Shown here: piece by piece, positions 12,007-52,578 of the stretch
Position numbering within the stretch: the stretch's first letter is position 1
Layout: every line of letters starts with the position of its first letter
Source: Candidatus Omnitrophota bacterium
Lineage (GTDB): Bacteria > Omnitrophota > Gorgyraeia > Tantalellales > Tantalellaceae
Direction: 5' to 3'
Length of the DNA stretch: 64,000 nt
Assembly: GCA_043813915.1 (NCBI GenBank)
Contig: JBDRKO010000026.1
Location: 66,236 to 130,235, forward strand
The notes under the pieces: model-generated
Databases searched by the model: none
What the model was told of the DNA's origin: nothing
What the model saw: the letters and a program-made list of their open reading frames with translations, nothing else
Position numbers and translations under genes: made by a program

Positions 12007-12236
12007 AGAGTGTCAAAGTGTCAGAGTATCAGAGTGTCAGGTTGGACCGATGCGGGAAGAAGGGACAGAGGGAAGAAAGACGAAGGAAGAAGGACGAAGG
12101 AAGAAAGACGCGGGCGGACGTGTAATGTTTTATGTGTGATGTGTAAGGACGAGATTGCTTCCCCCCGTCGCTTTGCTCCGCAAAGCGGAGCAGCGGGGGT
12201 CGCAATGACGGGTGGGAGGAAAGGTTGAAAGGGCGA

Positions 12237-17699: not shown

Positions 17700-18811
17700 A
17701 AATGTATATCTACGAAAAAAAAATCCTGATGGTCATGTTCTTCTTGATAGACGCGGTCGGATATTTATTTGCCCTACCGCTGCGTATCTTCCGGAAAGAA
17801 GCGGTACTTGTTCCTAAAAAGATACTTATCATACGGCTGGATCACATTGGAGATGTTGTCGAGGCGACAGTTGTTTTGAAGCCGTTACGCAAAAAACTCC
17901 CGGATGCCGAGATAGTTTTTATGGCACATTCCCGGTCAAAAGACATCCTGGAAAAGAACCCGCATATAGATAAGGTTATTTCTTTTGACGCGCCATGGTT
18001 TGACCGAAAGTCCCATAAGGCAGTTAGGGATTTAAAAGCGCTGGCACAGATGATAAATACGATACGGACCGGAAGTTTTAATGCGGCTGTAGATCTCAGG
18101 GGTGATGTGCGCCATATTACGGCTATGTTCTTCGCTGGGGTAAAGAGCAGAATAAGTTACGGTATAACCGGAGGAGGATTTCTCCTTACGCATATTATTC
18201 CGTATAGAAAAAAGTCCCATGAGACAGAAAAGAACATAATGCTTTTAGGACCGTTCGGGATAACTGCGGGTTCCTTTGGAACGGAACTCTATTATTCCGA
18301 AAAAGACGCGGAAAAAGCGGAATCCTTAAAGAAAGACGCGGGCATTTCAGACAAGTACGCTGTGATGCATGCTTTTCCGGGCCATTCTTCAAAAAAATGG
18401 AATGCTGATAAATTCCGGGCGGTCACGCGGTATCTGCGAAGTGAGAAGGGCCTGCAGGTCGTTATCGTGGGGACGGCAAGCGAAGAGGCGTATATAAAAG
18501 GCCTGAAGGGGCCGGAAGAGGATGATGGGGTCATTGATATCTCGGGTAAGACCGGTCTTGGAATGCTTGGGCATATCTTAAAAAAGGCCTCTATTTTTGT
18601 CGGGCTAGATTCAGGCCCTTCACATATCGCCGCCGCGGAAGGTGTTCCCGGCGTGGTGCTGTTCAGCGGAGTGAATGACCCCGGTCAATGGGCTCCGCGT
18701 TCGGAAAAGATCAAGATCATTTATCCCGGGGAAGGTAAGGATCTATCAGGTGTATCTACGGAAGAGGTGTGCGGAGCAATAGACGAAGTGCTTGATAAGA
18801 GTCAGAAGTAG
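17696..18811 (+). CDS. glycosyltransferase family 9 (heptosyltransferase-like)
   Basis: KILIIRLDHIGDVV N-terminal motif of ADP-heptose:LPS heptosyltransferases, C-terminal GLDSGPSHIAAA; likely true start ATG 17702. Confidence 0.6.
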   Translation: MKMYIYEKKILMVMFFLIDAVGYLFALPLRIFRKEAVLVPKKILIIRLDHIGDVVEATVVLKPLRKKLPDAEIVFMAHSRSKDILEKNPHIDKVISFDAPWFDRKSHKAVRDLKALAQMINTIRTGSFNAAVDLRGDVRHITAMFFAGVKSRISYGITGGGFLLTHIIPYRKKSHETEKNIMLLGPFGITAGSFGTELYYSEKDAEKAESLKKDAGISDKYAVMHAFPGHSSKKWNADKFRAVTRYLRSEKGLQVVIVGTASEEAYIKGLKGPEEDDGVIDISGKTGLGMLGHILKKASIFVGLDSGPSHIAAAEGVPGVVLFSGVNDPGQWAPRSEKIKIIYPGEGKDLSGVSTEEVCGAIDEVLDKSQK

Positions 18812-19237
18812 GGGAGACGAAAGACGAGGGAAGAAGGACGAGAGACGAGGGAAGAGGGACGACTGTTAAGTATCAAGGAGAATAGTTTAAAAGTTAAAGT
18901 TCTGTGGACACCTTTCCCGGGGTAGTGTAAACCCGACCCTCAAGATGTCCCCAGAATATATTTTTACTGGTTACAGGTAACAGACAAAGGGCGTAAAGCC
19001 TGCCTGTCCTGCCTGCGGCAGGTAAACCGGCAGGCAGGGAGTCACCGCGCTTCGCGCTAGAGTCATCATTCGCTACGCTCATTAGGGTCAGAGAGTCAGA
19101 GGGGAAGAAAGACGAAGGAAGAGAGACGCGGGAAGAGTCGCGGAGAGGAGCACGGTTAACTTGCATTTATATTGAATCTATGATAAACTATACTTTATCA
19201 TAGATTTGTTAAATTGTTGAAAAATGGAGTGTGTTTT

Positions 19238-20464
19238 ATGTCTAAACTTTACAAGAGAAGAATAATCGATGAAATACAAGATTATCTTTTTACGGATGAT
19301 ATTATTGTTTTGCATGGGGCAAGACAGGTGGGGAAAACGAGTATTCTTTACTGGCTTAGGGATCTTTTATCCAGGGAAGAAAAGATAGTTTATTATGTCG
19401 ATCTCGAGGATTCTCGTTTTGTTAGGATATTAGACCAGGGGATCGACAGTTTTGTTGACCATTTAAAAGAGGAGGGGATCTATAGCGAAAAGGAAAGCGC
19501 GCATTCTGAAAAAGTTTATGTTTTTATAGATGAGATCCAGTATTTAAATGACCCTTCTTCTTTTCTAAAATTAACAGCGGATCACCATAAATTTTTGAAA
19601 TTGATAGTTACGGGTTCATCAAGCTTTGATATCCAGAGTAAATTTAAGGATTCCCTTGTTGGAAGAACAGTCGATTTTGAGATATTTAATTTATCATTTA
19701 GTGAGTTCCTTGAGTTCAAAGAGTATGTTTTTAATGAAAAGAATGTTTTTTCGGATAAAAAGGTAGAAGAATTACGGGGTTTGTTCTTAGAATATGTTCT
19801 TTATGGGGGGTATCCCAAGATCGTGTTATCTCCTGAAGTTCATAGAAAGGAAAAATATTTGCAGCAGATCATAGATACGTATGTCAGAAAAGATATTCGG
19901 GACCTTGCCGATGTCAAAGATATCGATAAATTTAACAAATTAGTAGAGATCCTAGCCGCGCAAAGCGGGAATTTATTGAATATAACAGAGCTATCAAATA
20001 CTTGCGGAATAGCAAAGCAGACGGTTGAGAGATATTTGTTTATTTTGGAGAACACTTATATTTTAAAGCAAGTAAGACCCTATCATAAAAATATACGCTC
20101 AGAATTATTCAAAGTCCCTAAAATTTTCTTTTATGATAGCGGGTTAATGCAAATGCTATGGCTTAAAAAGTTACAGAAGGAAGTTCTTGGAAGCGTGTTT
20201 GAGACGGCAGTTTTTTCTGAGTTAGTTAAGAAATATCACAAAAACAGTGTTTTGTATTGGAGAACCGCTGATAAAAAAGAGATAGATTTCATTTTGCGGG
20301 ATAAAAACGGGATCTTGCCTATAGAGGTTAAGTTGAATTTTCAGCAATTTAATTCGTCATCTATCAGGTACTTTAATAAAAAGTACGACAATACAAAATA
20401 TAAAGTGGTTGGTCTAAAAGGAGACTGCGAAGAGGGATCTTATGTTTATCCATGGCAGCTTTAA
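19238..20464 (+). CDS. AAA+ ATPase, DUF4143-type (archaeal ATPase family)
   Basis: Walker A GARQVGKTS, Walker B VFIDEIQ; about 400 aa with C-terminal DUF4143-like region; flanked on both sides by repeat mosaics. Confidence 0.6.
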   Translation: MSKLYKRRIIDEIQDYLFTDDIIVLHGARQVGKTSILYWLRDLLSREEKIVYYVDLEDSRFVRILDQGIDSFVDHLKEEGIYSEKESAHSEKVYVFIDEIQYLNDPSSFLKLTADHHKFLKLIVTGSSSFDIQSKFKDSLVGRTVDFEIFNLSFSEFLEFKEYVFNEKNVFSDKKVEELRGLFLEYVLYGGYPKIVLSPEVHRKEKYLQQIIDTYVRKDIRDLADVKDIDKFNKLVEILAAQSGNLLNITELSNTCGIAKQTVERYLFILENTYILKQVRPYHKNIRSELFKVPKIFFYDSGLMQMLWLKKLQKEVLGSVFETAVFSELVKKYHKNSVLYWRTADKKEIDFILRDKNGILPIEVKLNFQQFNSSSIRYFNKKYDNTKYKVVGLKGDCEEGSYVYPWQL

Positions 20465-20496
20465 TCGGAGAGAACAGTTTAAAAGGTTAACCCATG

Positions 20497-20670
20497 CGCC
20501 CCGGCGAAGCCCCGTGCTTCAGGGCGGGGAAAATATCCGGGGCTCAGGATCAATTGGGAACCCTTCGGCTTCGCTCCCCTCGACAAGCTCCCCTCGGCCT
20601 TGCTCGGGACAGGCGGGGCAGGCAGGGCAGGCCCCGGTCTTTAGACCAGGGTATCGGTGAATTCAGAGCA
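20497..20670. repeat. about 170-bp repeat family J copy 1 (CCCCGGCGAAGCC...GATCAATTGGGAACCCTTCGGCTTCGCTCCCCTCGACAAGCTC...GTCTTTAGACC.GGGTATCGGT.AATT)
   Basis: Second copy at 34783-34945. Confidence 0.7.
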
Positions 20671-20924
20671 CAGGGCATGGCGCATAGTATTAAGAGAGAC
20701 GAAGGAAGAGCTGTTCCCTTGTCATCCCGACCGAACGAAGAGAGCGGAGGGATCTGGTTAAAAGAACATCGGAATCGGGAGATTCCGATGCACCTCGAAC
20801 ATTACGTTCTCGGCGCCTCGATTCGCCTTTGGCTCACTCGGGATGACAGGGTAGGGACATTTTACGAATCACCCCAGCAGATTTCTTCGAAATCTAAGCG
20901 CTGGGGCAGGCGAATTACGAAATC

Positions 20925-22436
20925 ATGACACATAACACATTACACATGACACATAACACAATTTTGCTAACGTTGCTTTTGCTGGCGGGAATACTGCTCT
21001 TCACCAATCTTGGCAATCAGTATCTTTGGCAGGATGAGGCGGAAACAGCGTGTTTGGCGAAAAATACTTTGAAGTACGGCTTTCCAAGGGCATTTGACGG
21101 TGAAAACACCGTAAACCCAAGGATAGGGGAACACTCTCATGTAGGGTTCGGTAAAGATTTCGCATGGCTTTATCATCCTTGGATGCAATTCTACATTACC
21201 GCCGGTTCTTTTTTTCTTTTCGGAATAAGCACATTTACGGCGCGTCTTCCTTTTGCTCTCATCGGACTGTTTAATTTGATACTGCTTTATTTCTTGGCGC
21301 TTAGAATAACAAAAATAAGATTTGTCGCTGTTTGTTCGGTGCTTTTAACCGCGCTTTCCGTCCCGTATCTTCTTATGATGCGGCAATGCAGATATTATGC
21401 TCCGTCGGTGTTCTTTGTGCTTGCCGCTCTTTTTTTCTATTCCCGGTTCAGAGAGAGCAGATCCAACGGGGATCTGGCGTTAACTGCAACGGCTCTGATA
21501 GCTCTGGGATATACGGTGCACGGCATTTTCGTGCCGGTCTATGCGGCTATCGGCATTCATTATATGTTTTTCTCTTTCGACAAAAAGACCTTTCCTCGGG
21601 TGGCGGCGGCGGGAATGTTCACGCTGGCGGCCGTTTTCTGGTGGTTCCTGTTATCCCAAAGTTCGGGGCATATCGCGGTTATTGCTCCGGATAAGATATT
21701 CGGCAATCTTGAGTTTCAGATACGGATGATAAATAAGTATATATTCCCGGTGATGTTTTTCGGGGCAATTTACTGTATCAGAGCCGTCTGGAAGAGGAAG
21801 ATCGGAATTGATCTTATGTCCGAAGAAAAACAGGCTATCAGTTTGATAGGTCTGGTTGTTTTAGTAAGTATTATAACGTTCTGTTTTGTAGAACAAAGGC
21901 ATCTGAGATATTTTGTGTATTTTATACCGTTATTGGCCATGGTACAAGGGCTGATATTGTTGCGTTTAGCCAGGCGGAGCAAGGTGCTTTTGGCGGGATT
22001 CCTAGCGGTCTCTGTTATCACCGGTACTTTTAATATGGGGTACCCGAACTTTCTTTTACCAAAATATATTTACGAGATAACCCATGATTATGACGGACCG
22101 ATAGAAGGCATAGTCAAGTTCCTTGAAAAGAACGCGTCTAAAGGAGATACGGTAAAGATCATATACGGGGATCTGCCGTTGATATTTTATACAGGTCTTA
22201 AAATAGATAATTCCTGGGTCTATGACGATGAGCATATGCCTAGGTGGATAGTCTTTAGACGCGGATGGCATGAGCAGTTAACTAACGATTATTACACGAA
22301 AGTAACTAAAAAATACAAAGAATATGTCCTGGCGTATCCGGATATTTTGTACGAGAACCGGCCGGGCGACCTCGGTTACCACAAATTCGCGACGGACAAG
22401 GAAGCGCCGGGGGTAATAGTGTTCGGGAGGAAATAG
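20925..22436 (+). CDS. ArnT/PMT-like GT-C membrane glycosyltransferase (third paralogue)
   Basis: Polytopic; first loop YLWQDEAETACLAKNT has the DE motif; annotated 5' end runs through an ACACATAACACA repeat module so the true start is probably further downstream. Confidence 0.45.
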   Translation: MTHNTLHMTHNTILLTLLLLAGILLFTNLGNQYLWQDEAETACLAKNTLKYGFPRAFDGENTVNPRIGEHSHVGFGKDFAWLYHPWMQFYITAGSFFLFGISTFTARLPFALIGLFNLILLYFLALRITKIRFVAVCSVLLTALSVPYLLMMRQCRYYAPSVFFVLAALFFYSRFRESRSNGDLALTATALIALGYTVHGIFVPVYAAIGIHYMFFSFDKKTFPRVAAAGMFTLAAVFWWFLLSQSSGHIAVIAPDKIFGNLEFQIRMINKYIFPVMFFGAIYCIRAVWKRKIGIDLMSEEKQAISLIGLVVLVSIITFCFVEQRHLRYFVYFIPLLAMVQGLILLRLARRSKVLLAGFLAVSVITGTFNMGYPNFLLPKYIYEITHDYDGPIEGIVKFLEKNASKGDTVKIIYGDLPLIFYTGLKIDNSWVYDDEHMPRWIVFRRGWHEQLTNDYYTKVTKKYKEYVLAYPDILYENRPGDLGYHKFATDKEAPGVIVFGRK

Positions 22437-22667: not shown

Positions 22668-22960
22668 ACCCCCTGCAGATTTTTTTGAAATCTAAGCGCG
22701 GGAGCAGGCAAGGCGCCGAGGACGAAATGTTCGAGGTGGGCAAAACGTCCCCGTTTTGACGGAGGTTCCGTTTGCGAGGGAAGCAGTCTAAAAGTCGAAG
22801 GTGGAAGTTCTGAGGACACTCTTCCCGTGGGAGTATAAGCCCTGGCCGAAGAATGTCCCCAGAATATATTTTTATTTCTGTTCACGCTATACGACATTCG
22901 CTATACTCTACACGATATACAAATTAACTGCCATGCGCTGTGCTCTATGCTAATTGTCAC
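22668..22960. repeat. about 300-bp composite repeat, copy 1 (contains AGATTTCTTCGAAATCT palindrome, GACGAAATGTCCGAGGTGGGCAAAACGTCCCCGTTTTGACGGA, GAATGTCCCCAGAATATATTTTTATTTCTGTTCACGCTATACGACATTCGCTATACTCTA)
   Basis: Near-identical to 44761-45105; shorter fragments at 18894-18960, 52340-52360, 52478-52515. Confidence 0.75.
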
Positions 22961-26694: not shown

Positions 26695-27151
26695 GTAGAG
26701 CAGAAGTCAGAAGACAGAGGTTAGAAGTCAGAGTGTAGGGGCACGGCATTATATAGAGTTACCAGAAACCGGTTACCAGTTACCAGAAGAAAGACGAGGG
26801 ACGAGATTGCCGCGTCGCTTCGCTCCTCGCAATGACGGATGGGGGGGTTCCGCTTTCGCTAAGGCTAAGGTGGATAGGCGCAATGACGGGTGGAGATAGA
26901 AGGACGAGATAAAACAAGTATTAAGTGTTAAGTTGTAAGTGTTATGTGGAATGTATGGCGATAATGGCATAGAGCATAGAGCGTAGAGCGTTAAATAAAG
27001 TTACCAGAAACCGGTTACCAGTTACCAGGGAAAAGCCTTAGATCACTGGTAACAGGCAACTGGTTACTTTGAAGAAGTCACTGTTCAAGGCCATGCGCCA
27101 TGCTCTATGCCCTATGCGGTTATTTTTATGTTAGCTACACAAGGAGTTCCG

Positions 27152-28835: not shown

Positions 28836-28905
28836 AGAGGATAGAAGTCAGAGAGACGAGAGACGTGGGACGTGGGAAGAAGGACGAGGAATAGGTTCTA
28901 GCGTG

Positions 28906-29135
28906 AAAAAACAGCCGACCCTTTACATGAAGCAAAAAGAAGCTCCGCAGATGCAATGCAAAGGTCCTTTGGATTCAAGCGTTTTAAGTAGGGAAGCAAG
29001 CGACTTTACGGCACAGATATACGGTAGGGCAGTACTGCTGAATTTAATAGGTAAAAGAGACCAAAACGCTTGACTATGTGATGATAAAAGAACCGGACGA
29101 ACGCGAACCAAACTAAGGCTCGAAGAAGCGCTTAA
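28906..29135. repeat. about 220-bp repeat family K copy 1 (GAAGCAAAAAGAAGCTCCGCAGATGCAATGCAAAGGTCCTTTG...ACGGTAGGGCAGTACTGCTGAATTTAA.AGGTAAAAGAGACCAAAACGCTTGACT) followed by GAACGCGAACCAAAC sub-repeats
   Basis: Second copy at 34362-34575, with additional degenerate GAACG(C/A)GAACCAAAC units to 34700. Confidence 0.7.
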
Positions 29136-29298
29136 CTATGTGATGACAAAGCATCCGTAATGACCGCGAACCAAACGAAGGTATATTATGCGTGATATGA
29201 TAAACAGTATGAAACAGATCATAGAAATGGAAAAACTAGCCGGGGTGGGGGAGATAGTGACAGAGGGTCTAGGGTCGAAAGACGAGGGACGAGTGACG

Positions 29299-29868
29299 AT
29301 GGACGAGATGAGTTTAGTGGAAATAGAGAAAAAGATAAAAAAATGCCGGAAATGCGAGCTTGCGAAGACGCGTACCAATACTGTTCCCGGAGAAGGCGAT
29401 CCCAATGCCCGTCTTATGTTCATAGGCGAAGCCCCCGGGGCGGATGAAGACGCCCAAGGCCGGCCTTTTATAGGCCGCGCCGGACAGCTTCTAACAAAGA
29501 TAATAGAGTCGATAGGGCTTAAAAGAGAGGACGTCTTTATAGCCAATATCCTTAAGTGCCGTCCTCCGGGTAACCGGAACCCTCTGCCGACGGAAATGGC
29601 GGCGTGTGCTTCTTATTTGAAAGCCCAGATAGAGGCTGTAAGACCGGAAGTCATATGCGCTTTAGGGAAATTCGCCGCTCAGACCCTTCTTAACACGGAA
29701 ACGCCTATTAGTAAGCTCAGAGGAGAATTTTACGAGTATCAGGGAGTGAAATTTATGCCGACGTATCATCCCGCGTATCTATTGAGGAATCAGAGCGGGA
29801 AGAAGGACGTTTGGGACGATATGAAAAAGATCGCGAAAGAGCTAGGGATAAAGGTCCCGAAGAAATAA
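29299..29868 (+). CDS. uracil-DNA glycosylase, family 4
   Basis: CRKCELAKTR (Fe-S Cys), GEGDPNARLMFIGEAPG, RPFIGRAGQLL motifs; the 37-codon upstream extension (from 29188) lies in repeat sequence. Confidence 0.75.
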   Translation: MDEMSLVEIEKKIKKCRKCELAKTRTNTVPGEGDPNARLMFIGEAPGADEDAQGRPFIGRAGQLLTKIIESIGLKREDVFIANILKCRPPGNRNPLPTEMAACASYLKAQIEAVRPEVICALGKFAAQTLLNTETPISKLRGEFYEYQGVKFMPTYHPAYLLRNQSGKKDVWDDMKKIAKELGIKVPKK

Positions 29869-30300
29869 ACAACCCGAGGCAGCCTGTTCCGGGCCCCTCC
29901 GTTACATGGATAAGTGATGAGTCCGAGGTATCCCATTCCATGCTCAGACAGTCCTCGGCCTTCGGCCTGCGGAACTGCGCGTGGAATGGAATGCCTCGGA
30001 CTCTTTTAAACAGGTTCTAGCGATCTTTGATTAATATTGAGTGTGGCGGGTTTTGGGCCCGTCGAGAACCCAAAACCCGCATTGGAAGATTGTTTCCGTC
30101 ATTGCGACCCCCGCTGTTCCGCTTTGCGGGGCAAAGCGACGGGGGGAAGCAATCACTTGGTGTCATCCCGACCGAACGAAGTGAGTGGAGGGATCTGGAT
30201 AATAACAAATGACAAAGCACAAATGACAATTGAATGACAAAATCCAAATGAAAAAAGAAACGCAAGACCCAAAACCCGCATGCGCATATGAGGCTACAAG

Positions 30301-31032
30301 ATGCTAAAAGAAGTTTTGATAATATTCTTTTTATGTTTTTCATTTTCTATAGAGACCTTTTCTTTAGAGAATAGAGAAATTGAAAAGGCTATGGTAAGAA
30401 TAATTACAAATAATTCTTTAGATGGAAAACATTCTTGTAACGGATTTGCTGTTCAATTTAAGGAGAAAATTTATATTGTAACGGTTAACCATGTTTTGTA
30501 TGACGAGAAACCAGAAATTATGGCAGACATCCTTATCATTGAGGATAAAAATGGTAAGAGAGTTTTTTTTGGGAAGAACGATTTTAAAAAATATTTAACA
30601 CAAAACGCTGGAATACCAGGAGAAAGAGTTGATATTGCTGTAGTTAATTTGCCAAGTATGCATGATCTAGACATTACTCCTATCCTGTTTGATTTTGTTG
30701 CTAATAATGCAATGTTGAGAGACCTTGAAGAGAAATTCAATGCTAATCTTAATAAAAAGGTTATTAGTCGTGTATATTTTTATGACCGCAATTCAGAAGA
30801 AGTGGAAATAGGTAAATCTCTGTTTGTAAATGAACCCGTTTCATCGGGGCAAAGAATGGTAGGGATAAAAGTTTTGGAGGATAAAATAAGGGAAGGAGAT
30901 TGTGGATCCCCGATTGTTTTTTCTTCTAGTGTAATTGGTATTGTTACGACAGAGTCTAAGGGTATTCAGAAAAACAGTATGGGAATTCTCGAAACAATCC
31001 AAAAGGCAGAGAGCAAGCCTTTAAAAACTTAA
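30301..31032 (+). CDS. secreted chymotrypsin-fold (trypsin-like) peptidase with Cys in the nucleophile position
   Basis: Signal peptide; NGFAV...TVNHVL (His), DIAVVNL (Asp), GDCGSPIV in place of GDSGGP; gene visibly AT-rich versus neighbours. Confidence 0.5.
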   Translation: MLKEVLIIFFLCFSFSIETFSLENREIEKAMVRIITNNSLDGKHSCNGFAVQFKEKIYIVTVNHVLYDEKPEIMADILIIEDKNGKRVFFGKNDFKKYLTQNAGIPGERVDIAVVNLPSMHDLDITPILFDFVANNAMLRDLEEKFNANLNKKVISRVYFYDRNSEEVEIGKSLFVNEPVSSGQRMVGIKVLEDKIREGDCGSPIVFSSSVIGIVTTESKGIQKNSMGILETIQKAESKPLKT

Positions 31033-31139
31033 TTTTCAGCAAAGGGGACACCTTCCTCGCTACGCTCGGGAGATGTCCCCATATGTCGAGTTGTAGGACG
31101 GTTTTCAATGCGACAAACTCTACAAACACAACAAACTCT

Positions 31140-33143
31140 ATGAACCCAACAAACCCCAAATACGTCGAAGTCATCACATCGCTGCCTATCGACCGGACCT
31201 TTCAGTATAGGGTCACGGGCGAAGAAAAGTATCCTCCCGCTATAGGTAAACGCGTGCAGATATCTTTCGGGCCCGCCAAACGTATCGGGTATATAGTGAA
31301 AATGGAAACAGAGCCACAGGTAGCCGACCCTAAACCTCTCCTGGATATTATAGACGAGGAACCTATATTCTCCGAAGAGATGATAACCCTGGCCGGATGG
31401 ATAAAAGACAATTATTTCTGTTCATGGGGTGAAGCTCTTGAAGCGATGATTCCGGGACCGCTTAAGCACGGTAAAGTGGAAATGACCACACGCGTGCATG
31501 AAGAAAGGGACGCGGTACTCGCAACATTCCCTCATGATCCTAACCTGGAACAACAGGATGTGATCGATGCCATAGACCGGTGCATAGACGGACGCAAACA
31601 TGAGGTTTTTCTTCTGCACGGTATAACCGGGAGCGGAAAGACCGAGATATATCTCCGGGCAATGGAAAGCGTTCTCGCGAAAGGAAAGACAGGGGTTATT
31701 CTGGTGCCGGAGATATCTCTTACGCCTCAAACGGTCGAGAGGTTCATTTCAAGGTTCGGGGATAAAGTGGCCGTGTTTCATTCAAAGATGCTTCAGAGTG
31801 TAAAATTTTCAGAATGGAAACGTATAAAGTCGGGAGAAGCGCGTATAGTAGTTGGCCCGCGTTCGGCCGTATTCAGCCCGCTGGAGAACCCGGGATTATT
31901 CGTTATAGACGAGGAACATGAACCGAGTTACAAACAGGACGATGTGCCCAGATACCACGCGCGTGAGGTTGCCATAGAAAGAGCCAGGATAAACGGTGCT
32001 CCGGTCATCCTGGGGACTGCCACACCTTCGCTTGAATCATATTTCAAAGCCGTCAATGGGGAATATACTTTGGTGGAGCTGACACAGCGCATAAGCGAAA
32101 AAGAGCTTCCCAGGGTAAAACTGGTCGATATGAGGATGGAATTCGATACCAGAGTGGGCAGGACCGTGATCTCAAGGATAATGGCAGAGGCATTACGTAC
32201 CGACATTTTCAAAAAACAGCAAGCGCTCATATTCCTTAACCGGCGGGGATTTTCGACTTTTGTCAGCTGTAGGAAATGCGGACATATTATAAAATGCACA
32301 AAGTGCGATTCACCGCTGGTATTTCACCGCGCGAAAAAACAGCTTATCTGTCATTACTGTAACAGAAGAGAAGATCCGCTTAAGATATGTCCGCTCTGTA
32401 ACAAGGATTATCTCATATACCACGGAACGGGAACACAAAAGGTCGAAGATGAACTCGCGAAGATATTGCCGGGCGCGCGCATAGAACGCATGGATTCCGA
32501 TACGATGGCTAAAAGAGGGTCGCATGAAAAGGTGTTAAAGGCGTTCAAGGAACATAAGACGGATATTATAGTAGGGACACAGATGATAGCCAAAGGACTG
32601 GATTTCCCGAAGGTCACGCTTGTCGGAGTGGTGGCGGCGGACGCCAATCTTAATCTTCCGGATTTCAGGGCCAGCGAGAGGACTTTCAATCTTATAACAC
32701 AGGTCGCCGGACGCGCGGGAAGAGGAGACTTGGGCGGCGAAGTTATAGTTCAGACATATACACCCGAGCATTACGCGTTAAAATTCTCCATAAAACACGA
32801 TTATCCCGGGTTTTATTCAAAAGAGATAGAATACCGGCGTGAACTTCTTTTTCCGCCTTTTACGAACATTGTCAAAGTGACATTGAGAGGGAGAAAAGAG
32901 GAAAATGTGATCAAGAGTATAGAGAGATTAGCGGAGATGCTGAAAAAGAAGCTGACTAAACCCGACATGATAGGTCCGGCCCCGTCTCCTATGACGAAAC
33001 TCAGGGGTTATTACAGATGGAATATCCTCTTGAAAGCCAAGGGGAGAGAAGGTATAGTAAAAGAGCTTAAGGCCGCGCTTAAAGGTTTTAGAAAAGGGCC
33101 GGGAGTGATCATGGCGGTGGATGTGGATCCGATGAGTTTGTAA
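31140..33143 (+). CDS. priA: primosomal protein N' (replication restart helicase PriA)
   Basis: N-term VEVITSLPIDRTFQYRV, Walker A GITGSGKTE, DEEH box, Cys4 zinc ribbon CRKCGH...CTKCDS...CHYC...CPLC. Confidence 0.85.
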   Translation: MNPTNPKYVEVITSLPIDRTFQYRVTGEEKYPPAIGKRVQISFGPAKRIGYIVKMETEPQVADPKPLLDIIDEEPIFSEEMITLAGWIKDNYFCSWGEALEAMIPGPLKHGKVEMTTRVHEERDAVLATFPHDPNLEQQDVIDAIDRCIDGRKHEVFLLHGITGSGKTEIYLRAMESVLAKGKTGVILVPEISLTPQTVERFISRFGDKVAVFHSKMLQSVKFSEWKRIKSGEARIVVGPRSAVFSPLENPGLFVIDEEHEPSYKQDDVPRYHAREVAIERARINGAPVILGTATPSLESYFKAVNGEYTLVELTQRISEKELPRVKLVDMRMEFDTRVGRTVISRIMAEALRTDIFKKQQALIFLNRRGFSTFVSCRKCGHIIKCTKCDSPLVFHRAKKQLICHYCNRREDPLKICPLCNKDYLIYHGTGTQKVEDELAKILPGARIERMDSDTMAKRGSHEKVLKAFKEHKTDIIVGTQMIAKGLDFPKVTLVGVVAADANLNLPDFRASERTFNLITQVAGRAGRGDLGGEVIVQTYTPEHYALKFSIKHDYPGFYSKEIEYRRELLFPPFTNIVKVTLRGRKEENVIKSIERLAEMLKKKLTKPDMIGPAPSPMTKLRGYYRWNILLKAKGREGIVKELKAALKGFRKGPGVIMAVDVDPMSL

Positions 33144-33419: not shown

Positions 33420-34351
33420 TGAAAATAATATTTTTTGGAACAGGAGATTTCGGGCTATCTACCCTTAAACGGCTCATAAAGAGCGGACATGACATTGCCG
33501 CGGTGGTAACGCAGCCTGATAAGAAGAAAGGACGGGGGATGGGGGTCCATCCTACGCCTGTTAAGGCATTGATAGAGGATACCATGCCGGGAACGGATGT
33601 GTTACAGCCGGGAAAACTTACCGGAGAGTTTATTGAGGATATAAAGCGTCCGGAAGCCGATGTTTTTGTGGTAGTGGATTACGGTAAGATCCTGCCGGTA
33701 TCCGTGCTGGAACTGCCTAAACGTTACTGTATAAACCTGCATCCGTCGCTTTTGCCTAAGTACAGAGGTTCGTCGCCCGTGAATCAAGCTATTCTTAACG
33801 GTGACGCGGTAACGGGCAATACGGTCATAAAGATTAACGAACGGATGGATGCCGGAGAGATACTGCTTCAGGAAGAATTCATTATTGGTAAGGATGAGGA
33901 CGCGCTGAGTTTGTCCGAAAGATTATCCGCTCACGGCGCGGAACTTATCATCAAGACGCTGGATATGATAGCCGCGGGAAAGGAAACTCTTACCGCGCAG
34001 GATGAGAGTGAGGCCACCTACGCGGCCAAACTCAAAAAAGAGGACGGTGAGATCGATTGGACCCGAACAGCCGAGGAAATAGACAGAAAGATCAGAGGTC
34101 TTAAACCCTGGCCCGGAGCGTTTACTTATATAAACGGAAAGATGTTAAAGATCCTTGAAGCAGAGATAGCACCTGCACAAAAAGACATAATGCTTGCAGG
34201 TACTGTTTTCCTTGATAAGGAGAGATTACTTGTATCTGCCTCGGACAAGGCGATATATGTAAAAATACTTCAGCTTGAGGGGAGAAAAGCAATGTCTGCT
34301 GAAGAATTTATGAGAGGGTGGCCCATAAAGAAAGGTATGATTTTGGGGTAG
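33420..34351 (+). CDS. fmt: methionyl-tRNA formyltransferase
   Basis: MKIIFFGTGDFG N-terminus, HPSLLPKYRG, C-terminal Fmt domain; upstream ORF-track extension is repeat/structured DNA. Confidence 0.85.
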
Positions 34352-34361
34352 ATCCAAAAGA

Positions 34362-34700
34362 GAAAAAACAACTGAACCTTAACCTGAAGCAAAAAGAAGC
34401 TCCCCAGATGCAATGCAAAGGTCCTTTGCCTTCAAGCGTTTTAAATAGAAGGACCAGCAACTTTACGGCACAAATATACGGTAGGGCAGTACTACTGAAT
34501 TTAACAGGTAAAAGAGACCAAAACGCTTGACTGTGTGCTGACAAAAGAACCGGACGAACGCGACCAAACTAAAACGAGACAAAACGTTTGATATCACTTT
34601 AACGAAACAACTATATGAGCGCGAGCCATATGAACGAGAACCAAACTTAGACAAGTTACTAAACACGGAGCCGGAACAATCGCGAACCAGACGTGAGGTT
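34362..34700. repeat. repeat family K copy 2 plus degenerate GAACGNGAACCAAAC sub-repeats
   Basis: Aligns with 28906-29180. Confidence 0.7.
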
Positions 34701-42045: not shown

Positions 42046-42698
42046 GGGAGAAAGAAATAGAAGTCAGAAATCAGAAGACAGAGGTCAGAAGACAGAGGCC
42101 AGAGGGAAGATAGACGAAGGACGAAAGAAGAAGGACGAGGGAAGAGCTGCTCTCTTGTCATTCCGACCGATTTCTGTGAAGCTTTAGCGAAGCAGAAGAG
42201 CGGAGGAATCTGGTTAAACACAAGAAAGATCCCTCAACTCGTTGCACTCGTTCGGGATGACAGAGCGGGGGCAGGCAAAGGAGATATTGGGTAGAAGATC
42301 CTGAAGGAGAGTCAAAGAGTCATCGCGCTTCGCGCTAGAGTCAGAGAGTCAGGTTGGACCGAGGTGGAAATAGAGTTATGTGTGATGTTATGATGAGGAA
42401 GTGGTTCTTGTTGCTCGTCATTGCGAACTCCGAGCTATGCGAGGGGTGAAGCAATCCCGGATCTTATAGAGATTGCTTCGTCGCCTGCGGCTTCTCGCAA
42501 TGACGGAGTGAGTGCGAATCACGACTTATGCTGTGCCCTTTGCTCTGTGCTCTATGCTGTTAAAGGTTCGTTAAGCAAAGTTACCAGAAACCGGTTACCA
42601 GTTACCAGAAGAACGACGTGATTTGCTGGTTACATGTAACAGGCAACTGGTTACTATTTGTTAGGCACAAATTACCGCTCGCAAAAAAACGATACATT

Positions 42699-44760: not shown

Positions 44761-45105
44761 CCCCGGCAGATTTCTTCGAAATCGAAGCGCGGGGGCAGAC
44801 GAAGCGCCGAGGCACCGAGGCACCGAGGACGAAATGTCCGAGGAAGTACTGAGGCCTCCCGGCCGAAGTGACGAAATGTCCGAGGTGGGCAAAACGTCCC
44901 CGTTTTGACGGAAGTCCCGTTTGCGAGGGAAGCAGCCTAAAAGGCGAAGGTGGAAGTTCTGAGGACACTCTTTCCATGGGAGTATAAGCCCTAGTCGAAG
45001 AATGTCCCCAGAATATATTTTTATTTCTGTTCACGCTATACGACATTCGCTATACTCTATACAATATACGAATTAACTGCCATGCCCTGTGCTCTGTGCG
45101 CTATG
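44761..45105. repeat. about 340-bp composite repeat, copy 2 (with internal CGAGGCACCGAGGCACCGAGGAC tandem expansion)
   Basis: Aligns module-for-module with 22668-22960. Confidence 0.75.
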
Positions 45106-52013: not shown

Positions 52014-52578
52014 GACCTAGGAGCAGAAGACAGAAGTCAGACGTCAGAGTGTAGGGGCACGGCATGACGTGCCCTATATGGTTTACGAATCACCCCCGCA
52101 GATTTCTTCGAAATCTAAGCGCGGGGGCAGGCGAAGGACGAGAAAAAAGTGTTAAGTGTTAAGTTTTAAGTGTTATGTGCGGTGTATAATGGCAAAGCGC
52201 ATAGGGTTAAGAAGTCAGAAGGAAGAAGCGTACCGGACTATAGACTATTGACCATAGACTATAGACCAAGAGCTTATAAGTCAATCGTCAATGGTCTGTT
52301 CGGGCTGTTCCCGAGTCACGAAGCACTAATTACTGGTCGAAGAATGTCCCCAGAATAAGGCGCATAGCATTAAGAAAGACGAAGGAAGAAGGACGCGGGA
52401 CGAAGGACGAGATTGCCGCGTCGCTTCGCTCCTCGCAATGACGGAGTAGTCACGAATCACGAATTACTGGACGAAGAATGTCCCCAGAATATATTTTTAT
52501 TTCTGTTCACGTTAAAGAAAGTCCAAGCCTAGAATGATCTCCCGTTAAAGATATCAGCAACTACAGTTATTAATGCAA

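Follow-up and report, generated by a model that had tools for sequence, protein, structure and literature searches.

The analysed stretch, referred to as the window, comprises 64,000 nucleotides (nt) of contig JBDRKO010000026.1 from a Candidatus Omnitrophota bacterium. Between a gene of the uracil-DNA glycosylase (UDG) family and priA, it contains a single AT-rich gene for a protein of 243 amino acids (aa), P0001, which is a homologue of the trypsin-like (S1) peptidases of clan PA and carries a cysteine at the predicted position of the nucleophile. The features of this locus are collected in Table 1. The gene can be regarded as real since an identical protein is present in four independent assemblies, among them GCA_018817765.1. 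The NCBI record that is identical to P0001 bears the name 'MAG: trypsin-like serine protease [Candidatus Omnitrophota bacterium]', where MAG denotes a metagenome-assembled genome. Despite this name, the protein is strictly speaking no serine peptidase, because the cysteine is found in all four known members of its family. The original prediction, which had been made from the DNA letters, let the gene begin at position 30017. This start was not borne out, as 30017 is the end of a spurious minus-strand open reading frame (ORF) over the upstream repeats.

Table 1. Features of the protease gene and its surroundings between the UDG gene and priA, in window coordinates.
Feature	Position	Strand	Basis or remark
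Left core flank, UDG family gene	29188..29868	+	Pfam UDG, 148 bits; conserved position in about 25 Omnitrophota genomes
Long hairpin module 3' of the UDG gene, with TTTT behind it	29919..30003	+	-57 kcal/mol, z -7.6
12-bp hairpin GCGGGTTTTGGG/CCCAAAACCCGC (motif copies one and two)	30046..30080	+	-23 kcal/mol, z -3.6; ancestral UDG-priA spacer, not islet
Block of genome-wide intergenic repeat modules, 184 nt	30083..30266		Between 15-nt direct repeats ACCCAAAACCCGCAT
Ribosome-binding site GAGG, 7 nt 5' of the ATG	30290..30293	+	Read from the sequence
Protease gene, 243 aa plus stop; PA-clan S1-like peptidase homologue	30301..31032	+	ORF list, Pfam, family alignment
Predicted signal peptide, residues 1-21, MLKEVLIIFFLCFSFSIETFS	30301..30363	+	Hydropathy; putative cleavage site from the -3/-1 rule
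His64 codon CAT (putative general base), in IVTVNHVL	30490-30492	+	MAFFT on trypsin His57; factor Xa profile match; invariant in the family
Asp111 codon GAT, in VDIAVVNL	30631-30633	+	Invariant in the family; spacing fits the S1 pattern DIALL/DIAVLRL
G-D-C-G-S-P putative nucleophile/oxyanion-hole motif (EGDCGSPIV)	30895..30912	+	Aligned on GDSGGP and GDCGAP; Cys201 codon TGT at 30901-30903
GC-rich hairpin directly 3' of the protease stop; right edge of the AT-rich islet	31044..31080	+	-21.7 kcal/mol, z -3.9
Right core flank, priA	31083..33143	+	Pfam PriA domains; likely true start ATG 31140

The assignment to the trypsin family is carried by a hidden Markov model (HMM) search of the kind that the original prediction had proposed as a check. 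The Pfam Trypsin profile (PF00089) matched residues 31-231 of P0001 on profile positions 15-211 of 220 with 30.0 bits and an E-value of 5.6e-7, which is above its gathering score of 20.6 bits. His64, Asp111 and Cys201 can be read straight from the sequence, and their spacing is S1-like, with Asp111 47 residues past His64 and Cys201 a further 90 residues on. The order histidine, aspartate, nucleophile is likewise that of the S1 peptidases, as are the motifs TxxH, DIAxxxL and GDxGxP and the architecture of a single, predicted-secreted domain of about 220 residues. Both the His (TVNHVL) and the Asp (DIAVVNL) named beforehand as trypsin-like are thus present, and both are invariant in the family. 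In the MAFFT alignment with trypsin, His64 falls on His57 and GDCG on GDSG. This alignment does not pair Asp111, whose assignment is based on its motif and spacing. P0001 differs from typical S1 peptidases in its nucleophile motif, which reads GDCGSP and not GDSGGP, in the absence of the typical S1 disulfides, in an insertion of about 35 residues after Asp111 that is predicted to be helical, and in a very remote sequence overall.

The position of Cys201 was supported by several alignments. When the family profile was searched against the sequences of the PDB, the segment 'ierGDCGaPivy...viGli' was placed on 'cqGDSGGPhvt...vtGiv' of factor Xa, so that Cys201 lies on Ser195 or, in S195A mutants, on the alanine. 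In the same search, 'YlvtvnHvL' was placed on 'YILTAAHCL' of factor Xa, which contains His57. The factor Xa matches are each weak (E about 0.1) and mutually consistent. Using hhalign with two public reference sequences, Cys201 of the family was paired with Ser195 of bovine trypsin and with Cys139 (GDCGAP) of the Norwalk virus 3C-like protease. These alignments, together with the presence of the cysteine in 4 of 4 members, identify P0001 as a Trypsin-family homologue with a cysteine at the predicted nucleophile position, and the central claim of the original prediction is upheld in this respect.

The observation that had been named as a possible refutation is an adjacent serine in the place of the nucleophile. 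P0001 indeed has a serine two residues past the cysteine, and an ordinary serine protease could use this Ser203 of GDCGSP, or yet another serine, with the cysteine being incidental. However, Ser203 is replaced by Ala in two of the three relatives and by Gly in the third, and a residue that is not conserved cannot be the nucleophile, whereas Cys201 is invariant. In addition, every alignment sets Cys201 and not Ser203 on Ser195. The use of another serine is therefore extremely improbable.

Relatives of P0001 are very few. A word-indexed search of 5.8 billion protein clusters, queried with the single sequence, a two-sequence profile and a four-sequence profile and read up to an E-value of 10, returned three further clusters only, P0002-P0004, all of which come from metagenome contigs. 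In an exhaustive phmmer search of 1.8 billion representatives, P0002 was the sole family match, and no relative of the serine type was found at E<=0.001. There were no relatives in the GTDB species genomes, the JGI metagenomes contained nothing besides the gene itself, and NCBIfam gave nothing meaningful. The most likely interpretation is that P0001 belongs to an orphan family of four protein clusters that is very rare and was previously unnoticed. The GC content of all four genes lies between 0.30 and 0.34, and for this reason the family looks native to AT-rich genomes.

P0002-P0004 share only 24-32% identity with P0001, and 39 of 243 columns of the four-sequence alignment (A2) are invariant. 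The invariant columns include H64, D111, G199, D200, C201, G202 and P204, and the motif GDCG[SAG]P is present in every member. Three of the four genes encode Cys201 by TGT and the fourth by TGC, which indicates that the cysteine is kept by selection and is not the product of a recent mutation or error. That the cysteine stems from a sequencing error or from a recent point mutation was ruled out by the identical assemblies, the conservation and this codon variation.

The predicted export of the protein agrees with what was claimed for it beforehand, as a signal-like hydrophobic N-terminus is present. The segment MLKEVLIIFFLCFSFSIETFS, followed by LE, has the highest 12-residue hydropathy within P0001 (2.77), and cleavage after it, with T/S at positions -3/-1, is plausible. 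All four members start with such a hydrophobic signal-like segment, and P0002 shows the lipobox-like sequence LFINSC. An extra pair of cysteines is common to the three longer members. This pair would fit a disulfide in an exported protein and thus supports export. Regarding expression, the sequence upstream of the protease gene showed no sigma-70-like promoter, and the hairpin 3' of its stop codon is not a canonical intrinsic terminator, since it is not followed by a T-run.

Taken together, we consider it probable that the gene encodes an exported His-Asp-Cys thiol endopeptidase of a rare orphan cellular PA-clan family that was acquired laterally in a hotspot between UDG and priA. The product would be an enzyme of about 24 kDa that is exported by the Sec pathway and has a chymotrypsin/trypsin fold (clan PA, S1-like), in which a thiol replaces the usual serine. 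Asp111 would orient His64, which would deprotonate Cys201, and the resulting thiolate would attack the scissile carbonyl. An intact G-D-x-G oxyanion hole, formed by the backbone amides of Gly199 and Cys201, would stabilise the intermediate. A thioacyl-enzyme would then be formed and hydrolysed, as in the viral 3C, NIa and 3CL proteases. Such a protein would presumably have a proteolytic role outside the cell or in the periplasm. For an enzyme with a thiol this role would be plausible, since the phylum typically lives in anoxic habitats.

Several points weigh against this interpretation. An extracellular free thiol is sensitive to oxidation. P0002-P0004 each remain below the Pfam Trypsin threshold on their own. 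The trypsin-type fold and the triad geometry are assigned from sequence, and AlphaFold2 reached a mean predicted local distance difference test (pLDDT) value of 34.7 with one sequence and 34.8 with the four-sequence alignment. A Foldseek search of this low-confidence model (pLDDT about 35) against the PDB gave no match at E<=0.001. Furthermore, no partner gene is common to the genomic contexts of the four members, and these contexts contain no clue to a substrate. Engineered exchanges of the nucleophile in the PA fold usually lower the activity about 10^4-fold (PMC4576821), so the cysteine can also mean a weak or non-proteolytic protein.

Some of these points would equally fit an inactive pseudo-protease, in which the trypsin fold is kept as a binding or regulatory module and the change from serine to cysteine is a loss of function. 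The drop in activity by orders of magnitude that typically follows a nucleophile exchange in clan PA (PMC4576821), the tiny and fast-evolving family with its low identities, and the low-confidence structural models (pLDDT about 35) of the putative active site all speak for it. Nevertheless, the histidine, the aspartate, the cysteine and the whole G-D-C-G-x-P motif are invariant, while 84% of the columns vary. Inactive homologues normally lose their triad piecemeal, and the cysteine was retained across a synonymous codon change. A pseudo-protease is consequently regarded as unlikely, albeit as the main alternative.

The thiol endopeptidase proposed here shares its presumed chemistry with viral enzymes, and the original prediction had drawn this comparison by pointing to 3C-like proteases of clan PA(C). 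As in the viral 3C, 3C-like and NIa proteases (MEROPS C3, C4 and C37, e.g. norovirus NS6 and the NIa protease of tobacco etch virus, TEV), a His-Asp/Glu-Cys triad on a chymotrypsin fold is proposed. The nucleophile motif of the family, GDCG[AS]P, includes the norovirus motif GDCGAP, with which that of P0001 is nearly identical, and is close to that of the potyvirus NIa proteases; the nucleophile motif of TEV NIa is GQCGSP. The hhalign match to the Norwalk virus protease (E 2e-4) was better than the one to trypsin, and norovirus proteases appeared in the PDB list at E-values of 0.4-1.7. These similarities could be explained by the capture of a viral 3C-like protease.

However, the hhalign match covers only 22 columns and is confined to the nucleophile segment, with no significant similarity outside it, whereas the only whole-domain match is the cellular PF00089. 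None of the family members matched Peptidase_C3, C4 or C37 of Pfam at E<=10. The search for homologues in phages and viruses that had been suggested yielded none, as there were no relatives in IMG/VR and no match at E<0.05 in PHROGs. The G-x-H motif of the S1 pocket, which confers specificity and follows the nucleophile in the viral enzymes, is absent from the family alignment. Known PA(C) enzymes belong to eukaryotic RNA viruses, are processed from polyproteins and are not Sec-exported. In contrast, the protease gene is a free-standing gene on a bacterial chromosome with its own ribosome-binding site and a predicted signal peptide and is not part of a polyprotein. A viral capture is therefore very improbable. 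Since the best whole-domain match is to the cellular S1 family, the term 'clan PA(C), 3C-like' applies to the chemistry and does not denote membership in that family. The viral comparison accordingly holds for the GDCG motif and for the proposed chemistry, but not for membership in the viral families.

The composition of the gene sets it apart from its neighbours, as had been predicted. Compared with the 48 window ORFs of at least 150 aa, which have a mean GC content of 0.454 (standard deviation 0.034) and a mean GC content at third codon positions (GC3) of 0.488 (standard deviation 0.054), the protease ORF has a GC content of 0.321 (z -3.9) and a GC3 of 0.258 (z -4.2). These are the lowest values of the set on both measures.

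The surrounding gene order is conserved. The succession of HAD-phosphatase, MGDG-synthase-like glycosyltransferase, UDG, priA and fmt is kept in about 25 Omnitrophota genomes, and a tblastn search with P0001 gave no match (E <= 1e-5) at any of these approximately 25 syntenic loci. In related genomes, UDG and priA are about 20-550 bp apart, and most of these gaps could not accommodate a gene. The three closest genomes alone have a gap of about 1.2 kb, namely the lineage of the window, Ca. Aadella gelida (L009, PriA 85% identical) and one further MAG (L032, PriA 81% identical). Among the related loci, the ORFs in the gap were listed for L009 and L032 only. The gap of Ca. Aadella gelida contains a DUF3800 gene (Pfam, 66 bits) that is AT-rich, with a GC content of 0.289 compared to 0.399 for the locus. 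In L032, the gap contains an unknown ORF and a C-terminal remnant of DUF3800.

Because sister genomes carry different cargo at the same site, the site is a variable cargo hotspot with turnover. The lineage-specific presence of the protease gene at this hotspot and its extreme composition support horizontal acquisition, and the gene is supported as a laterally acquired, lineage-specific single-gene cargo. Horizontal acquisition had also been suggested originally, and the synteny now provides stronger evidence for it than was available then. The locus resembles other single-gene hotspots, or genomic islets, in having AT-rich cargo between syntenic core genes and other cargo in sister genomes. 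It differs from typical islets in that there is no integrase, transposase or tRNA gene in the region and no att-like repeat around the protease gene.

Further observations concern the variation of this site. Compared with the strain GCA_018817765.1 (L001/L002), the last 276 nt of the UDG gene differ from the window at 6 sites (2.2%), whereas the stretch of about 3.1 kb that starts at 30045 (for L002 at 30083), includes the protease gene and ends with priA shows 0 differences. Such a sharp boundary points to a recent sweep or recombination event in the segment comprising islet and priA, or else to a chimeric assembly. A conserved element of about 120 nt (…GAGCGCGCCTTTCA.ACTC..ATGCTTAAGCTATGGCCCACCAGATGGAAGGGAACACTTAAGACA…CTTACCGCTCA) lies at 5640-5760 in L009 and at 3220-3340 in L032, just downstream of the DUF3800 cargo or its remnant, and is absent from the window. 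It may be a structured RNA or a boundary of the hotspot. At the right flank, an alternative gene call gives priA 667 aa, and the tblastn matches begin at residue 26. Positions 31083-31139, directly before priA, consist of a 9-nt tandem repeat (ACAAACTCT/ACAAACACA), which lengthens the longest priA ORF by 19 codons, and the conserved part of PriA starts after the ATG at 31140.

The hotspot and the surroundings of the relatives also bear on the biological role of the protein. A role in conflict or defence, either against phages or between bacteria, would make the protease an effector and the hotspot a small defence islet. The AT-rich accessory DUF3800 gene at the same site in the sister species would be in line with this. 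On the contig of P0004 (L008, 1-2238), a type I restriction-modification specificity subunit (PADLOC E 6e-58) and an AbiGi-like gene (Pfam, 25 bits) immediately precede the P0004 gene. The stop of the AbiGi-like gene at 1379 and the start of P0004 at 1381 are separated by one base, which is a defence-island-like arrangement. P0001 itself has a weak partial match to the PADLOC candidate PDC-S45 (15 bits, E 0.0018). However, a PADLOC-DB match of 15 bits is low and there is none for the relatives, the export signals in all four proteins are unusual for abortive-infection effectors, and the contexts have no partner gene in common. The gene for P0003 follows a C92 (YaeF/YiiX) amidase-like gene, and P0002 is encoded among small unknown membrane proteins. 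The contexts of the relatives and the DUF3800 cargo give hints of an accessory or conflict role. As a specific explanation, a defence gene is rather unlikely, and since it concerns the biological role, it is compatible with the mechanism of a thiol protease.

The DNA upstream of the gene contains repeat modules and inverted motifs, which the original prediction had interpreted as a sign of insertion. Their presence is confirmed. The motif CCCAAAACCCGC is non-random and occurs in exactly three copies, at 30046-30057 on the minus strand and at 30069-30080 and 30268-30279 on the plus strand, while 0.36 copies are expected by chance and three were reached in 0 of 100 shuffles. The hairpin formed by the first two copies is found at the same position, with a few base differences, in Ca. 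Aadella gelida, which does not have the protease gene. The 15-nt direct repeat ACCCAAAACCCGCAT, at 30068-30082 and 30267-30281, encloses the repeat modules and not the protease gene. Ca. Aadella gelida lacks the enclosed block, and its hairpin is directly followed by a sequence that resembles the one 3' of the second ACCCAAAACCCGCAT copy. Further copies of the module at 30161-30202 lie at 20720, 39023 and 42176. As the modules occur genome-wide and the hairpin is kept in Ca. Aadella gelida, the repeats belong to the spacer and to the general intergenic architecture of the genome. The idea that they are scars of the protease insertion was rejected because the modules are present in many intergenic regions and the hairpin in a sister without the gene, and the repeats are thus not evidence of insertion. 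The hairpin module after the UDG gene (29870-30004) is swapped for an unrelated module in the strain GCA_018817765.1. In Rfam, neither the region nor the whole window had any match beyond a chance one below threshold, of a plant miRNA family on this hairpin.

Intergenic spacers throughout the window share a vocabulary of short modules, for example at 12008-12146, 18790-18878, 26708-27068, 42072-42282 and 52024-52514. These include 7-nt GA-rich tandem units (GAAGGAC/GACGAAG), 'GTTACCAGAAACCGGTTACCAG', the palindromic 'GTAGGGGCACGGCATGCCGTGCCCCTAC' and a hairpin module TGTCATCCCGA...GGGATCTGG. Mechanical ORF calling over such modules produces spurious ORFs, e.g. 20494-20928 and 30017-30343 on the minus strand. 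Longer repeats were also observed. A direct repeat of about 210 nt with 91% identity (28892-29111, upstream of UDG, and 34349-34568, downstream of fmt) encloses the block of UDG, protease gene, priA and fmt; there are two copies in the window, and it has no Rfam match. Another direct repeat of 230 nt with 94% identity is located 22 kb apart at 22721-22950 and 44870-45099. It overlaps shorter repeat families ending in ...GAATGTCCCCAGAATATATTTTTATTTCTGTTCACG, and this end may represent a conserved promoter or leader element. Another AT-rich islet with a single gene lies at 19214-20464 on the plus strand and encodes an ATPase with the domains AAA_14 and DUF4143 (Pfam, 96 and 148 bits). The GC content of this ORF, 0.341 (z -3.3), is the second lowest of the 48, and spacers with repeat modules lie on either side. 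This gene is probably likewise accessory or mobile.

Clan PA is the classic case of one fold that uses either serine or cysteine as the nucleophile. To our knowledge, a cysteine nucleophile on the trypsin fold has so far been described for proteases of RNA viruses only, and the published view assigns serine to the cellular proteases of clan PA. A full-text literature search found no described bacterial chymotrypsin-fold cysteine protease, and absence there is no proof of novelty. The T-Mac protein of Treponema was considered as a described counterpart and found to be irrelevant. The family might, as a tentative proposal that falls somewhat short of an even chance, be the first recognised cellular, in this case bacterial, family of chymotrypsin-fold cysteine endopeptidases and thus a natural switch from serine to cysteine outside the RNA viruses, in an enzyme exported by the Sec pathway.

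For genome annotation, the case illustrates that an annotation as 'trypsin-like serine protease' can mask another catalytic type, and the locus documents a hotspot for single-gene cargo between UDG and priA in Omnitrophota. If the proposed activity is true, it would contradict the textbook rule that proteases of clan PA are serine enzymes in cells and cysteine enzymes in viruses only. Small, free-standing and easy to express, the protein would allow thiol and hydroxyl catalysis to be compared on one scaffold, and it could offer a new protease specificity for biotechnology, comparable to the TEV and 3C proteases. The family would further be a naturally occurring case in which to study how a thiol nucleophile fits into the fold, and it would possibly be related, as a cellular family, to the viral 3C-like lineage. 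It would mean that the switch between serine and cysteine happened, or was retained, in cells too.

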